Shown here in pieces: positions 29,839 to 46,490 of a stretch of DNA of 64,000 nucleotides. How positions within the stretch are numbered: the first letter of the stretch is position 1; every line of letters begins with the position of its first letter. This DNA comes from an uncultured Gammaproteobacteria bacterium (GTDB lineage: Bacteria; Pseudomonadota; Gammaproteobacteria; Chromatiales; Chromatiaceae): NCBI GenBank assembly GCA_942490985.1, contig CALNYW010000007.1:107657-171656 (forward strand), written 5' to 3'. The position numbers were made by a program, and so were the translations under genes. The notes under the pieces are model-generated. The model saw nothing but the letters and a program-made list of their open reading frames with translations, had not been told where the DNA came from and did no database searches.

Positions 29839-31042
29839 AGCAACGTCAAAGACTGCTAGTCCTTTCTACGACGTTTCCGCGTTGGCCAGACGATCATGAA
29901 CCCGCATTCGTCTATGAACTTTCAAAATGGCTGACTGACCAGTTCGAAGTCACGATCGTCGCGCCTCACGCGCCCGGCGCGAAGGCCCATGAAAAAATGG
30001 CTGGCATGGACGTCCATCGCTTCAGATACGCACCGGAGCGTCTGGAAACGCTCGCCTATGATGGCGGCATCGGTAGCAACCTAAAGCGTTCCAAATGGAA
30101 GTACCTCCTGCTCCAGGGATTCCTTTTGAGCTTCTTTTTTTCGGCACTTTCCCTGGTCCGAAAGAAAAAGATCGACGTGGTCCATGCGCACTGGATGATC
30201 CCTGGCGGGATGATCGGAGCAGCACTCAAGGTCCTATATCCAAAGTTACGCGTCATCACAACTGCACACGGCGCCGATGTTTTCCAGCTCAAAGCCCCAT
30301 TGTTCGCAAGAGTCCGCCGCTGGGTCGCAGAAGAGGTCGATGCGGTCACCGTTGTAGGCAGGAGCCTGGCTAATCGAGCCAAAGAGGAAGGCTGGTTCAG
30401 CGACAAAGTTTCAATCGCCCCAATGGGGGTAGACCTGGAACACACCTTCGTCCCGAACCAAAAGCCACATGACCATCCCACCTTGGTCTTTGCCGGACGA
30501 CTGGTCGAAAAAAAAGGCGTGCATCTTCTTATCGAGGCGATGCCATTGATCAAGCAATCGATACCAGACATCCGGTTACTGGTCGCAGGTCACGGTCCCT
30601 TACAGAGCGAACTTGAGCGGCAAGTCGACAAGCTTGACTTGGGCAGTGAAGTCACTTTTCTCGGCCGATACCGCAGTTCTGAATTGCTGCCGGACTTTTT
30701 CAGCCAAGCGAAGACATCGCGGTGTTGCCTTTTGTCGAGGCAGCAGATGGCGATGTTGAAGGATTCGGACTGACCACCGTAGAGGCGATGGGGGGATTGC
30801 CTGCGTGGGGTGGGGTGGGCGAATGGCGGCAAACGGAGAAACCGGCCTGGTGAGAAAGACGTTTCCGCGGGGGGCGCGGGGGCACCACGGCAGACGACGT
30901 CTCGGGTGAGCCCGCAAGGCACGGGGCCGGAGGGGGGGGTGATGTAGGGAGGGCGAGGACCAAACGCGAATCGGACGTTTCGACGGGCGAGATGACAAGC
31001 CGGGACGACTCGAATGAACGCTATGATGCGCCTGACCGCTGA
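29835..31042 (+). pseudogene. GT4-family (GT-B) glycosyltransferase, C-terminal third frame-shifted several times
   Basis: In frame to ~30711 (..FLGRYRSSELLPDFFSQA). The E-x7-E region continues in another frame (DIAVLPFVEAADGDVEGFGLTTVEAMG). NGETGLV is in a third frame, and a possible tail ..NERYDAPDR* ends at 31042. The 3' limit is uncertain. Confidence 0.65.
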
Positions 31043-31348
31043 TCAATCAGAATTTATACTTCGGTCAATACTGAGCGGCTTTCCGTCAACTATTCCGGCG
31101 TTGACGGCGAAACTCGCCGGATTTGGAAAATTGAGGCTACAAGCAGTCAGACTTCGTCTGTCGGCATCATGAAGATGTCAAATAGTTAGAGTTACCGTGT
31201 GTTGGGACTCCTCGACGGTTCTCATCCGTGTCAAAATGTGCGCCTGGGGGCGTCTTCAAGATCGTCATGCTGAAGAAACAGCGGGGCCAGCACCACTGGG
31301 ACTGGACAAAGCCGGCCGACAGAAGGGATCATCGATAGAGTAAACGAC

Positions 31349-32087
31349 ATGTTGCAAGCCTATTTCAAGGCACTCTACAAACGAACAATGCGGAAAGCCT
31401 ATACACGGGCGCAGGATGAGATCATCTTCGCGTTGCAAAGAGGCGGCGAATGTTTGGATTGTGGCGCAGGCAGGTGCAGGCCACATGTTCGGTCGCCTGA
31501 GGACCCGTTCTGAACTGTCCTCAGCCACCTACCACGGATTGGAGTGGAACGCAGAAGCGGTAAGTGAGGCCCAGGCAAAAGGCTTGGATGTCCTCGAATG
31601 GGACCTTAACCATGCAATTCCGCATGACGACGACAGATTTCGCGTCGTCTTCGGGCTGTCGGTGCTGGAGCATTTGTTGAACCCGTGTCGATACATAACC
31701 GAATGTCATCGTGTCTTGCGCAAAGACGGGACTTTGATCATCCTCACACCAAACATCAGCACTTACTTCACCGCTGCGCTGATTTTGGCAGGCCGGATGC
31801 CCTCCAGCGGTCCACATCCGGATTCGAACAGTCTGATGCAACGGCAGGAACTGTTCCGTGTCAGTTCAGAGGAACTACAAAACGATGCGGAACTGGAAAC
31901 ACCCATGCACCGTCATCTTGTTGTCTTCAGTTACCGGGCTCTCAAGTCCTTTCTGGAATCGGTCGGTTTTCGGCAGATTCGCGGCTATGGCTTTGGCGTT
32001 TATCCTTTCCCTAACTTCATGCAGCCCGCACTCGAGAGGATCGATCCGTTTCATTGCCACCAGATGGTCTTTGTCGCGCGTAAATAA
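31349..32087 (+). pseudogene. class I SAM-dependent methyltransferase, N-terminal frameshift
   Basis: ATG 31349 frame: MLQAYFKALYKRTMRKAYTRAQDEIIFALQRGGECLDCGAG (motif I), then out of frame. The body (GHMFGRL...FGLSVLEHLLNPCRYITECHRVLRKDGTLIILTPN) is the 31416-32087 ORF. Junction ~31465-31480. Confidence 0.65.
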
Positions 32088-32131
32088 TCACACCAGCGAG
32101 CTGAAACCGCAGCTGTTCTTTTGTGCGCAGA

Positions 32132-43877: not shown

Positions 43878-43956
43878 TAGGACACTCACAGCGTTTTGCC
43901 AGCCACAGAGGAAACAGGGCTGAAGACGACCAGCGTCTGACATACGCTCGAACTCC

Positions 43957-44424
43957 TCAGCCGATAAGCACCAGGGTGCGAATCCGCCGTTGGATATAGC
44001 GTTCGGTCTTGGCTACCAGATCATCAAGATTGCGGCGGTTGACGTCGCCCACCAGCACCAGGTCAACGATGCCGGTATCACGTCCCTCGGCGTAATCGCC
44101 AGTCAAGTACGCGGCTCTCCAGATTTCCGAGCCGCTCGAGGATGCTCTCAAAGATCCGGTCCATGCCCAGCGCCTTGCGCACCATCGATTGCAGCTCGGG
44201 AAACAGCGGGTGCGAGCGGTCGGCGCGATAATGCACCTCACGTCCCTCCTTGGCACTGGTCAACAGGCCGGCGGCGCTGAGCTGCTGCAATTCGTCCGCA
44301 CATGGCCCGGGGAAGCATGAAAATCCTGCGCCAGCTCGCGCAGATAGGCGTGGCTGTCCGGATTCAGAAACAACCGCATCAGGATCTGCACCCGCATCTT
44401 GGAGGTGATCAGGCTATCGAGCAT
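43957..44424 (-). pseudogene. winged-helix (ArsR-like) transcriptional regulator with C-terminal extension, two frameshifts
   Basis: ATG 44424: MLDSLITSKMRVQILMRLFLNPDSHAYLRELAQDFHASPGHVRT. One base is lost there. Then ELQQLSAAGLLTSAKEGREVHYRADRSHPLFPELQSMVRKALGMDRIFESILERLGNLES. After a second frame change: AYLTGDYAEGRDTGIVDLVLVGDVNRRNLDDLVAKTERYIQRRIRTLVL. Confidence 0.5.
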
Positions 44425-44559
44425 GCCTGTATTGTTCGGTTTTTTAGTACGAAACTTTAGTGACAGGGGTCAATAAATCGGAAACTATCGCTAAAAGGAT
44501 TTCAATTCCGGCCGCCAAACTGTGACATCTCTGGGCAAATCATTGCAGACCCCCATTTC

Positions 44560-46490
44560 ATGAATCCGAGCCGACTGCTCTCAGTAGCCATTCTGGTCAT
44601 TGCCCTTGCGGCGACAATCACCGTTTACAGCCCTGGTCTGGGTGGCCCTTTTCTTTTCGACGACAGCGTCCACATCACCCAGAACCGCTGGGTAAAGATC
44701 GACAATCTCGGTTGGGACAGCCTGACCCGCGCCTGGCAGTCATCGTTCACCAGTTTCCCGAGCAACCGCCCCCTCGCCCAGCTGAGCTTTGGCATCAACC
44801 ACGCAGTCGCTGGCCTAAACCCCTGGGCCTTCAAGGGCGTCAACCTGGCCATTCATCTGCTGACCGGCCTGGCGATCTTTGTATTTGCCCGTCTCGGGTT
44901 AAGGGCGCTTTCCGGCCAGGCCGACCGGACTCAAGGCGAGACACTTTTTGCCCTGGCGGTCGCCGCGTTCTGGCTGGTACATCCGCTGCACGTCAGCACC
45001 GTGCTCTACGTCGTGCAGCGCATGGCGCAGCTGTCGACGCTCTTCCTAATGCTGGCGCTAAGCGCCTACCTCTGGGGACGTCTCCGAATCGCGGACGACA
45101 AACCGGGGCTGCCGTGGATGCTGGCCGCTATCCCGTTGGCGGCGATTGGCTTTCTCGGCAAGGAGAATACGGTCCTGCTCCCGCTGCTCCTTCTGGCCTG
45201 CGAACTGACACTGCTGCGCCAATTATCACTGGGCAGGAATCCTTGGCCTGTGCGGCTAGTCTGGATTGCACTGATCGTTCTGCCGCTGGTTGCCGGGGCC
45301 ATCTATCTCATCAATCACCCAGGTCTGTTGAGCCACGGCGGACGCCCGTTCACGTTAGAGGAACGGGGACTTACCCAGCCGCGCATCCTCTGGCTTTACC
45401 TGAACTGGTTATTCGTCCCAAATGTGTCACAGCTCGGCCTATTCCATGATGACATCGTCACATCGACTTCATTACTGAGCCCGCCGACCACGCTCATTGC
45501 GATCATGGGGTGGATCGGGCTGATAGTGACGGCGCTGGTCATGGCCCGGCGCTGGCCTGTTTTCGCATTCGCGGTGTTCTTTTTCCTCGCGGCCCACGCG
45601 CTCGAGTCGACCATTTTTCCGCTCGAAATGGTCTTCGAACACCGCAATTACCTGGCGAGTATCGGGCCGCTGTTCCTGCTGGCCTACCTGGTCACGGTTG
45701 GTGCAACAAAGACGCGTTTTCCGGGCGCGATCGGACTGCTGGCGATCGCGCTACTCATGGCTTATGGCGCTGCGACCTTCGCGCGTGTGCAGAACTGGAC
45801 GAGCCACGAGACCTTCGTGCTGGCCTCGGCCGAAAACCATCCCAACTCGGCGCGCGCCCAGTTCATGGCCGGGCAACTGGCGATTTCCATGTTGCCGAAA
45901 ATCGAGGGTGACAAATCAGAGATCGCCAATGTCGCGAGCCAGTTCCTCGAACAGGGCCTTGCTGCCAACGATCGCTGCCTGAACTGCCTGTTCGGTCTCG
46001 TCGTGCTCGATCTCCACCTCGATCGCTCGGTTGATCCCGCCACGCTCGAACGACTCACTAAAGCCCTACGTGGTGGTCCGGTCGATGCTTCCCTGGTCTC
46101 GGTCAGCCAGTTTGGTTTTCTGGTCAACTGGCTGAGAGCCGACGCCAGCAATCTCACCGGACGCAACTGGAGTCGGTGTTCGAGGCCGCGCTCGAAAACC
46201 CGAACTGGAACGGCACCGGCCGCGCCAGTATCGAAGCGGCCTACCGCAAATATTTCGAGCTTGTGAAAGGGGATCTCGAATCGGCACGCATTCATGCGGA
46301 ACGGGCGATTACCGCCTGGCCCAGTCAGTGGGCCTACCGCGTCCAATTGGTCGAGGTGCTGATCAAGCAGGGACGACGCGAAGAGGCGCTATTGGCGCTC
46401 GACGATGCCGCGCGACTTTCGAACAATAAAAAACGACAGATCGAAGTCGCTCGTTTAAGGGACATTTTACGTCCAGCTGATGCACAATAG
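44560..46490 (+). pseudogene. polytopic GT-C-like membrane glycosyltransferase with C-terminal TPR repeats (TMTC/PMT_2/DUF1736-like); one frameshift near the 3' end
   Basis: First-loop motif GGPFLFDDSVHITQNRWV, followed by at least 10 hydrophobic segments. TPR-like tail (..NHPNSARAQFMAGQLAI.., ..SARIHAERAITAWPSQWAYRVQLVEVLIKQGRREEALLALDDAARL). The frame switches at ~46156-46162 (ASNLTG | TQLESVFEAALENPNW), joining the 568-aa and 104-aa ORFs. Confidence 0.6.

Follow-up and report, generated by a model that had tools for sequence, protein, structure and literature searches.

Organization of the island beside aroC

The window, i.e. the whole stretch of 64,000 nucleotides analysed here, comes from an uncultured Chromatiaceae/Thiolapillus-like gammaproteobacterium and carries a low-GC gene island adjoining aroC. 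The site is hypervariable, and comparison of the locus with sister genomes revealed a different island next to aroC. The sister genome L010 aligns with the window without gaps, at 93.7% identity, as far as aroC and is unrelated past it, and in L012 and L013 this position is taken by other glycosyltransferase/Wzt genes. A homology-free lower bound on the frame disruptions was determined as the fewest frame changes needed to read each gene through without meeting a stop (minimum switches), and homologues, including those of related loci designated by L numbers, were aligned in a frameshift-aware manner. The genes and their lesions are as follows.

15990 to 17106, minus strand: asd, aspartate-semialdehyde dehydrogenase, in the flank; one +1 frameshift.
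29095 to 29838, plus strand: class I methyltransferase, first gene of the island, 26-32% identical to methyltransferases of related clusters; ORF intact, 0 switches.
29835 to 31000, plus strand: GT4/GT1-type glycosyltransferase; clean to ~30704, then at least two frameshifts, the first at ~30711, where the EGFGLTTVEAMG motif carries on in another frame; plasmid homologues found by tblastn span residues 108-341.
31250 to 32087, plus strand: methyltransferase, chained by a codon model; minimum switches 3, with 2-3 switches in the 5′ part (~31320, ~31435) and 31436-32084 in one frame; tblastn match in a single piece over residues 38-209.
32132 to 33290, minus strand: GT4 glycosyltransferase; one frameshift at ~33067, the remainder in one frame; plasmid homologues align in a single piece over residues 35-330.
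33250 to 34166, minus strand: GT2 glycosyltransferase, aligned in a frameshift-aware manner to a Persicobacter GT2; minimum switches 4; frameshifts at ~33974, 33813 and 33641, plus ~33480 and 33430; matches Pfam Glycos_transf_2 after repair.
34300 to 35533, minus strand: conserved protein, family unassigned, with intact homologues in L001, L002 and L016; its gene sits after that of DegT in related clusters; minimum switches 7, about nine frameshifts (35292, 35263, 35145, 35092, 35015, 35002, 34902, 34865, 34702).
35530 to 36612, minus strand: DegT/DnrJ/EryC1 sugar aminotransferase; six to eight frameshifts (36497, 36459, 36415, 36314, 36120, 36097, 36071, 36040); the repaired protein covers positions 9-359 of 360 of PF01041 (E=6e-84).
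36622 to 37612, minus strand: NAD-dependent sugar epimerase/dehydratase; six frameshifts, 37095 (-1), 37069 (+2), 37043 (+2), 36910 (+1, T5), 36833 (-1) and 36775 (+1, C4), and an extra GAA codon at 37367-37365; event calls identical against L007, L015 and L001, the DNA also being read directly; after repair PF01370 1-240 of 240 and PF16363 1-332 of 332.
37625 to 38330, minus strand: methyltransferase; two -1 frameshifts, 37936 and 37673; the L007 homologue (239 aa) is intact.
38327 to 39184, minus strand: TIGR04325-family methyltransferase; unbroken alignment to L007 (62% identity), with zero frameshift events in the frameshift-aware alignment.
39181 to 40044, minus strand: GT2-like glycosyltransferase; open ORF with a compensated pair, +1 at 39606 and -1 at ~39553.
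40251 to 41430, minus strand: glycosyltransferase, no Pfam family; minimum switches 3, at least 4-5 frameshifts (~41213, 41061, 40978, 40922, 40611, against an Acaryochloris pREB7 glycosyltransferase).
41617 to 42300, minus strand: methyltransferase-like protein with the FDVVLVDGRARP motif; minimum switches 4; a compensating pair, +1 at ~41925 and -1 at ~41875, and further switches N-terminally.
42300 to 43027, minus strand: Wzt, ABC-transporter ATPase; at least four frameshifts (42796, 42552, 42418, 42320); PF00005 1-135 of 137 after repair, two separate fragments before.
43040 to 43900, minus strand: Wzm, ABC-2 permease; five frameshifts (43727, 43653, 43520, 43468, 43349); PF01061 2-210 of 211 after repair, just 149-210 before.
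43923 to 44436, minus strand: HTH and nucleotidyltransferase-domain protein; frameshifts at ~44295-44324, ~44119 and ~43968; the chained sequence matches plasmid homologues in a single piece.
44560 to 46490, plus strand: large membrane protein, TPR-like at the C-terminus, with no homologue among plasmid sequences; one visible frame switch at ~46159, hidden compensated pairs aside.
46497 to 47378, plus strand: GT2 glycosyltransferase, last gene of the island; ORF intact, 0 switches.

Once repaired, the genes matched the families of a Wzm/Wzt cluster (PF01061, PF00005, PF01041, PF01370 and GT2), and these Pfam matches agree with the identities given in the original prediction (Wzt, ABC-2 permease, Rossmann and SAM enzymes, glycosyltransferases). 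As in Wzm/Wzt O-antigen clusters, Wzm and Wzt are accompanied by several GT2/GT4 transferases, methyltransferases and a syntenic module. This conserved module (GT, TIGR04325 methyltransferase, methyltransferase, epimerase/dehydratase and DegT aminotransferase) is found in L001, L002, L007, L014 and L015. Unlike the Wzt proteins of L012 and L019, which have a C-terminal carbohydrate-binding domain, Wzt of the window is a short form that apparently lacks it. No second copy of the island was found in the genome, metagenome or protein collections searched, and its proteins are singletons in a collection of 15 billion proteins.

Distribution of the frame disruptions

An extreme density of frame disruptions at ~30.7-46.2 kb, and almost none outside, had been reported, and both measures bear this out. 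Passing through the 16 island genes (29835-46487) required a minimum of 38 frame switches, against none in the flank genes carB, acrB, leuC, aroC and hrpA and one in asd. Homologue-guided alignment of 12 island genes gave 50 events in 3,154 codons (9.46 kb), the calls against distant homologues (30-38% identity) being approximate, while the same aligner gave 0 events in 5,491 codons (16.5 kb) of 10 flank genes. With a low penalty, alignment to distant GT1 homologues plainly called too many events. Because ORF structure or the codon model added at least eight switches in genes without good homologues, the island holds about 58 or more small indels; the earlier figure of roughly three dozen underestimates this total. 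The density amounts to 5.3 per kb across the homologue-aligned island genes and to ~6-7 per kb in the dirty blocks (block tally), against ~2 per 100 kb in the flanks, where asd is the one known lesion in ~47 kb.

Several details of the original prediction were reproduced. The two edge genes (29095-29835 and 46497-47375) and the inner TIGR04325 gene (38330-39184), said to read clean, needed no switch, and all the junctions it named were recovered: ~37936 (between ctc and tg), ~42552 (gcaggagg), ~44295, ~30711 and ~46159. Among the flank genes tested only asd was broken, as had been stated, with the frameshift in ccc/ggg: residues 1-44 of the PDB ASADH match one frame and residues 48-377 another, and the junction (~16975-16990) lies within GGG/CCC runs. 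An essential gene thus carries a lesion of the island type, and it is counted towards a technical origin. The ORF 39181-40044, which looks intact, conceals a +1/-1 pair that swaps the invariant motif GADCWGWATW.RGW.LF for unrelated residues. The two events were the same against L002, L001 and L014, and their best repairs lie in CC dinucleotides.

Spectrum and context of the lesions

The 50 events comprise 24 of -1, 19 of +1 and seven best read as +2 (for instance at 37070, where AA reads AAAA, and at 37044, where GG reads GGGG). Conserved motifs are also interrupted by two insertions of a single codon, one at 37367-37365 and one in the methyltransferase gene, so that the claim of a one-base gain or loss at every junction does not hold. 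No IS element or truncation was found in the homologue-aligned island genes. The lesions are just -1, +1, +2 and possibly +3, and the genes are full-length once repaired, which departs from the mixed lesion spectrum of decay. The association with short homopolymers that had been noticed is weak: the longest run near an event averages 2.67, versus 2.37 in the background, a run of at least 4 lies near 18% of events, and the longest homopolymer option among the best repairs is 1 nt in 14 and 2 nt in 10 of the 39 resolved events. A few events fall in T5, C4, A4 or G4 runs, the longest run at the junctions being 5 nt, and no enriched k-mer or common sequence motif was found near events. The homopolymer bias is weaker than that of nanopore R9 consensus (PMC9262707). 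With -1, +1 and +2 mixed, the spectrum points clearly to no one platform.

The events are locally crowded, three of them within 53 nt of the epimerase gene (37095-37043) between intact RACALRLT, NTYGPGMQ and VKDARQ, and 4-5 within ~110 nt of the DegT gene (36127-36040). Such clusters reach 3-5 indels per 50-110 nt, and the conserved protein text between them stays intact. Genes that are already broken hold indel-free stretches of 0.6-1.6 kb, and the edges between clean and dirty blocks lie within genes (30705, 31436, 33067, 37937). These intragenic edges, the compensated pair hidden in an open ORF and the broken asd are what technical blocks would give. Some clean blocks hold whole intact ORFs (the TIGR04325 gene and the two edge genes), as selection on genes still retained would likewise leave them, an observation that speaks against an artefact.

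The frameshift-aware alignment that yielded the 50 indels contained no secure nonsense codon (12 genes, 3,154 codons). The TAG at 41890-41892 was considered as an in-frame stop and rejected, as it is out of frame between two compensating shifts; the remaining candidates, 40936-38 and 42379-81, sit in dense, poorly aligned clusters. A random substitution in the aligned codons gives rise to a stop in 3.55% of cases. With bacterial substitution:indel rate ratios of 2.8-9.7 (derived from Sung et al. 2016, PMC4978911, Table 1), 50 indels gathered by neutral decay should be accompanied by 5-17 new stops, against 0 secure ones seen (P(0) 7e-3 to 3e-8). Furthermore, the proteins have not diverged faster than their relatives. 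The epimerase is 68% identical to that of L001 and 81% to that of L015, against 68% and 83%, respectively, for the L007 protein; the DegT protein shows 57-58% identity versus 60% between intact homologues, and the methyltransferase 60% versus 59%. In this relative-rate comparison the window branch is not longer than the branches of intact homologues, and the elevated divergence of decay is not seen. The island thus shows small indels alone, with neither a matching substitution nor a nonsense load.

Origin of the frame disruptions

Two explanations had been offered without ranking, very recent indel-dominated decay of the locus and local consensus error; the data favour the second and leave the first unsupported. 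Genuine decay would mean that the locus had lost its function and, under relaxed selection, gathered ~60 small indels, while the TIGR04325 and edge genes are still maintained. It would account for lesions limited to an accessory island between clean housekeeping flanks, and the island resembles MGI 1 and 2 of Salinibacter ruber (low-GC, strain-specific glycan islands at a hypervariable site), in whose finished genome pseudogenes are enriched in cell-surface polysaccharide islands (PMC2800850). Single real lesions do occur in the module, since in L001, a high-coverage isolate assembly of Polaromonas, the gene of the orthologous methyltransferase is broken once by what looks like a true frameshift. 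Decay is nevertheless improbable. It would require indels to outnumber substitutions by a wide margin, far beyond the measured indel:substitution ratios of 1:2.8 to 1:9.7 (PMC4978911, Table 1), and is at odds with the missing stops, the lack of added amino-acid divergence and the absence of large deletions and IS elements. It would also have to lodge dense groups of indels between perfectly conserved motifs, spare long stretches of broken genes, place most events outside homopolymers and break the essential asd. Islands that have truly decayed combine several types of lesion with a low density of coding sequence, whereas in the present island every gene is full-length once repaired and no remnants were seen.

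Surface-glycan genes are classic phase-variable loci, and this gene class, with the few events in T5, C4, A4 and G4 runs, would suit real frameshifts that are rescued or switched, by phase variation at simple-sequence tracts, programmed ribosomal frameshifting or transcriptional slippage. However, no long tract lies at the junctions (runs of at most 5 nt, and of 1-2 nt for most events), neither a slippery motif nor an enriched k-mer was found there, and no known recoding mechanism could decode genes that each carry five to nine shifts of both signs. The junction contexts effectively refute phase variation or recoding, whose probability is negligible. A consensus into which at least two co-occurring strains, differing in their versions of the island, were collapsed is a sub-type of consensus error and not its competitor. 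The demonstrably strain-variable site and the singleton proteins speak for it, and the block structure and the mixed -1/+1/+2 spectrum fit patchy mis-consensus. Strain mixing usually gives substitutions along with indels, but the island genes show no excess of substitutions, and at the consensus level such a collapse is indistinguishable from simple low coverage; we regard it as a possible though rather unlikely form of the error.

Consensus error very probably explains the frame disruptions. We infer this technical cause from the lesion pattern alone. The spectrum, the lack of stops and of extra substitutions, the sub-genic blocks, the hidden pair and asd all argue for it, as do similar patches in public metagenome contigs of the sister lineage: L013 has at least 54 frameshifts in the housekeeping acrB (83% identity once repaired) and L012 has four in leuC, both adjoining clean genes on their own contigs. 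As in long-read or hybrid assembly errors, the lesions are patchy, single-base repair restores the protein text, the repaired proteins matching Pfam families over the full length in one piece, and essential genes are broken too; unlike in these, nearly all lie in one accessory island and not genome-wide. Long-read-only assemblies carry 474 indels per 100 kb, against 22.8 after polishing and fewer than 2 in short-read assemblies, and the indel-only load of the island (5.3 and ~6-7 per kb) is similar to the 4.7 per kb of unpolished ones (PMC6487183). Low-coverage nanopore bins require polishing against frameshifts (PMC9262707), and strain-variable islands are a setting where read recruitment fails (PMC2800850).

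The ~60 disruptions would then be absent from the organism's DNA, being indel errors left over in a consensus that was derived from error-prone data of the long-read type, and they would persist in patches of 0.7-5 kb that escaped correction. Probably few accurate reads are recruited to so strain-specific an island, or its coverage was low or mixed, so that polishing or short-read contigs would have reached parts of the island alone, the clean blocks. The housekeeping flanks would have been corrected almost fully, with asd as a leftover. Underneath, the island is an ordinary ABC-transporter-dependent surface-glycan (O-antigen-type) cluster, probably a functional one, and its shattered appearance should be taken as a flag on data quality, not as biology.

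Frame disruption in the glycan island and its flanks

The surface-glycan cluster spans 29.1-47.4 kb and directly adjoins aroC. It is an ordinary ABC-transporter-dependent glycan cluster. Several unrelated bacteria carry, intact and in synteny, the block formed by the GT2-like transferase, the TIGR04325 gene, the neighbouring methyltransferase, the epimerase, DegT and the gene that follows DegT. On either side of the island lie housekeeping genes of a gammaproteobacterium: the chorismate synthase (27924-29024) shares 83-97% identity with proteins of Chromatiaceae, Thiolapillus and unclassified Gammaproteobacteria MAGs. 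The GC content is 0.60-0.64 in the flanks versus 0.51-0.59 at 29-47 kb.

Genes of the island in map order, and the split flank gene asd
29095-29838: methyltransferase, first in island order
next: GT4 transferase (a)
next: methyltransferase (b)
next: GT4 transferase (c)
next: GT2 transferase (d)
next: conserved protein, no family assigned
next: DegT aminotransferase, Pfam match once repaired
next: NAD-dependent epimerase/dehydratase, Pfam match once repaired
next: methyltransferase, between the epimerase and TIGR04325
next: TIGR04325 methyltransferase
39181-40044: GT2-like transferase
next: glycosyltransferase (e)
next: methyltransferase-like protein (f)
42300-43027 (-): Wzt, Pfam ABC_tran once repaired
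next: Wzm, Pfam ABC2_membrane once repaired
43923-44436 (-): HTH-nucleotidyltransferase protein (g), between Wzm and the TPR protein
next: large TPR membrane protein (h)
next: GT2 transferase, last in island order
15990-17106 (-): asd, split by one extra base at ~16975-16990 in a GGG/CCC context

Several features of this region are worth recording. The Wzt, at about 250 aa, seems to be a short form lacking the C-terminal carbohydrate-binding domain (Wzt_C), unlike the Wzt of L012 (a sister-lineage contig) and L019 (a syntenic cluster), which carry it. The HTH-nucleotidyltransferase gene is an unusual passenger for a glycan cluster; in its plasmid homologues, a small 'DNA-binding protein' gene comes next. 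For the TPR membrane protein, homologues were sought in the plasmid collection alone, with none found. A MazE-like antitoxin and Fic-domain pair lies at 27169-27782 (-), between aroC and an MFS transporter; its position is conserved in the sister-lineage contigs L010-L013, and in L011 and L012 the pair is inverted. The window (1-64000) contains no tRNA or tmRNA gene, and the island is therefore not tRNA-associated.

Three independent measures of frame disruption were used. The first, a homology-free bound defined as the fewest frame changes needed to cross each gene without a stop, came to 38 over the 16 genes at 29835-46487, to zero for the two edge genes, TIGR04325, carB, acrB, leuC, aroC and hrpA, and to one for asd. 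For the second, we built an aligner of protein to DNA in which +1, -1 and +2 frameshifts are explicit states, and used as queries the intact homologues of syntenic clusters (L001, L002, L007, L014, L015, L016, L019), plasmid homologues (L022-L027) and proteins from a representative search. The homologue-guided alignment detected 50 frameshifts over 3,154 codons (9.46 kb) of 12 island genes, and not one in the 5,491 codons examined in 10 flank genes from both sides of the island. At least eight extra switches were present in genes without good homologues, giving an overall total of about 58 or more; the counts are lower bounds in a, b, d (C-terminal part), e, f (N-terminal part) and h, and positions derived from homologues of 30-38% identity are approximate. 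These data bear out the original prediction of extreme disruption within the island and near-clean flanks (50 events versus 0; bound of 38 versus 1). Its estimate of three dozen is matched by the homology-free bound and exceeded by the total obtained with homologues. All the junctions it had placed were recovered (~30711, ~37936, ~42552, ~44295 and ~46159), the edge genes and the inner TIGR04325 gene needed no frame switch, as it had stated, and the extra base in asd was reproduced.

The third measure, searches against Pfam, gave the same picture. The raw frames yielded only fragments (ABC_tran 9-48 and 95-135 in different frames, ABC2_membrane 149-210), and repair produced a single full-length ABC_tran (1-135/137) and ABC2_membrane (2-210/211), together with DegT (9-359/360, E=6e-84), Epimerase (1-240/240) and GDP_Man_Dehyd (1-332/332). 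A codon-usage HMM did poorly in the low-GC island when its training set was the flanks; retraining on island genes let it recover only some 60% of the shifts supported by homology. At low penalty, alignment to distant GT1 proteins over-called frameshifts, and it was discarded save for the 30711 junction. Suspect overlapping ORF pairs in the flanks were rejected as frameshifts because each member is a separate full-length gene.

Spectrum and distribution of the lesions

The original prediction held every junction it resolved to be a one-base change. This was the case for 24 events of -1 and 19 of +1, but seven are best read as +2, for instance AA to AAAA at 37070 and GG to GGGG at 37044. At these two sites the +2 reading was preferred because three homologues lack the residue that a -1 in a run of five would need; the choice between '+2' and '-1 plus extra codon' was thus decided on homologue length. 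Motifs that are otherwise invariant are interrupted by two single-codon insertions, one at 37367-37365 and one in the methyltransferase gene. Neither large deletions nor IS elements were found among the island lesions, and in the 12 aligned island genes no nonsense codon was secure. The TAG at 41890-41892, at first read as in frame, ceased to be a true stop when closer homologues were used, being out of frame; between a +1 at ~41925 and a -1 at ~41875 the third frame reads SNPCLSRSQGYRDRSF, which fits the family pattern. Dense, poorly aligned clusters surround the other two stop candidates (40936-38, 42379-81), and the expected text is found there in neighbouring frames.

Random substitutions in the island codons would create a stop in 3.55% of cases, and measured bacterial substitution:indel rate ratios are 2.8-9.7 (computed here from Sung et al. 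2016, PMC4978911, Table 1). Neutral decay with 50 indels is then expected to produce 5-17 new stops, the probability of observing none being 7e-3 to 3e-8. Furthermore, the broken genes have not diverged more than intact ones. The epimerase, with six frameshifts, is 68% identical to L001 and 81% to L015, and the intact L007 homologue gives 68% and 83%; DegT and the methyltransferase likewise showed no extra divergence compared with intact homologues.

Among the 39 events that could be resolved, the longest homopolymer fitting the best repair was 1 nt in 14, 2 nt and 3 nt in 10 each, and 4-5 nt in the other 5. Runs near events were modestly enriched (2.67 vs 2.37, Mann-Whitney p=0.006); around them, 4- and 5-mers showed no enrichment. 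These mostly short runs and the absence of an enriched k-mer argue against replication slippage, phase variation, programmed frameshifting and errors linked to methylation motifs, the last being rejected on the k-mer result. Any reading of the island frameshifts as recoding or phase variation has, on these contexts, practically no chance of being correct.

The events are strongly clustered. Three fall within 53 nt (37095-37043), between the texts RACALRLT, NTYGPGMQ and VKDARQ, each nearly identical to the homologues, and four to five fall within ~110 nt (36127-36040), between GVAGSFG, GAYSFYP, NL..P and LVTDD. A biological process generating 4-5% local indels would have randomised the motifs between the events by substitution. 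The triplets 37095/37069/37043 and 36120/36097/36071 are each spaced by 23-26 nt, and each restores the frame as a set. Periodic spacing was rejected because no period was found outside these two triplets, whose spacing is probably a chance outcome within very dense error clusters.

On a larger scale, dirty stretches (30705-31435; 33068-37937, ~6.8 events per kb; 40612-44325, ~5.9 per kb) alternate with stretches in which no event was detected (31436-33067 and 37938-39550, as well as 29025-30704 and 44326-46158, where hidden compensated pairs would escape detection as there is no close homologue). The transitions fall within genes already broken: b and c run for 0.6-0.9 kb without indels after their 5′ lesions, in agreement with single-piece homologue alignments. 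Selection cannot account for such sub-genic blocks; patchy correction can. Even the open ORF 39181-40044 conceals a compensated pair, a +1 at 39606 and a -1 at ~39553, between which the alternative frame reads GADCWGWATWRRGWALF, a motif invariant in all three homologues. The called protein instead has the unrelated residues RSRLLGLGDLAARLGVVQ where the invariant GADCWGWATW.RGW.LF motif of the catalytic region belongs, and the public protein collection already lists this scrambled 287-aa product, as a singleton.

Consensus artefact versus genuine mutation

The island frameshifts are most likely a local consensus artefact rather than a biological feature. The gene asd is normally essential. Its residues 1-44 and 48-377 of the ASADH lie in different frames, and the extra base is the only lesion found among the flank genes examined; errors of this type therefore form a low background in the assembly. 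Indel density was ~600-700 per 100 kb in the dirty blocks and ~2 in the flanks. In a mock community, long-read-only assemblies contained 474 indels per 100 kb, short-read assemblies <2 and short-read-polished ones 22.8 (PMC6487183), and low-coverage long-read bins need polishing, failing which gene calls are frameshifted (PMC9262707). Islands for cell-surface polysaccharides are classic examples of 'metagenomic islands' that recruit too few reads (PMC2800850).

The comparison with sister genomes, which the original prediction had proposed, revealed different islands at the same site. L010 matches 25502-29024 of the window without gaps at 93.7% identity and shows no relation to it past the start of aroC; L012 and L013 (AroC 90%) carry other GT2, epimerase and Wzt genes beside aroC. 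This makes the site a strain-variable island. The island of the window was found in no second copy in genome, metagenome or protein collections; its genes have relatives there of 45-66% identity at best. Genome and metagenome contigs scanned with the intact TIGR04325 protein gave only relatives of ≤53% identity, hence no sister copy, and exact matches to the window proteins in the public collection come from a single NCBI contig of 270,110 nt. Polishing would probably have failed in a strain-specific island, leaving indel errors in the consensus. The same aligner detected at least 54 frameshifts, almost all insertions, in acrB of L013 (L013:11830-15027; 83% identity once repaired) and four in leuC of L012 (L012:18701-19910). 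In both contigs, from sister-lineage JGI metagenomes, the calls for aroC and for the glycan genes beside it are full-length ORFs. These lesions are patchy consensus errors in public assemblies; dense, patchy, indel-only damage to indispensable genes therefore occurs in those of this lineage. Collapse of a strain mixture into one consensus is a plausible sub-variant of the artefact.

Real decay of the glycan island would agree with lesions confined to an accessory locus, with clean stretches that in some cases hold whole intact ORFs, and with the pseudogene-rich polysaccharide islands of a finished genome (PMC2800850). The high-coverage assembly L001 (Polaromonas sp. isolate, ~82x SPAdes contig) also has a single -1 frameshift, at ~L001:3411, in the orthologous methyltransferase (L001:3159-3871), the rest of its cluster being intact; this may be a genuine lesion. 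These points, however, leave the indel-only spectrum, the sub-genic blocks and the clusters all unexplained, and the lack of a secure nonsense codon against 5-17 predicted, together with broken genes that show no extra divergence, makes decay very unlikely. Still less likely, the indels are truly in the DNA and a localised burst of near-pure frameshift mutagenesis inactivated the island; an error-prone polymerase, or intercalator-type damage to one locus or to recently transferred DNA, might produce such a burst. To our knowledge, the indel:substitution ratio that this requires has never been documented for bacterial pseudogenes.

Consequences for annotation and biology

The main weight of the finding lies in quality control. 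Public annotation of this contig is expected to list at least a dozen genes falsely as pseudogenes, and one or more proteins wrongly as 'intact' (39181-40044). More generally, consensus errors survive in strain-variable islands, and indel-only spectra, sub-genic clean and dirty blocks and hidden compensated pairs can tell artefact from decay even without reads. O-antigen loss, host adaptation or genome reduction inferred from this island would be spurious. Were the indels real, the island would document an unprecedented indel-dominated mutational process.
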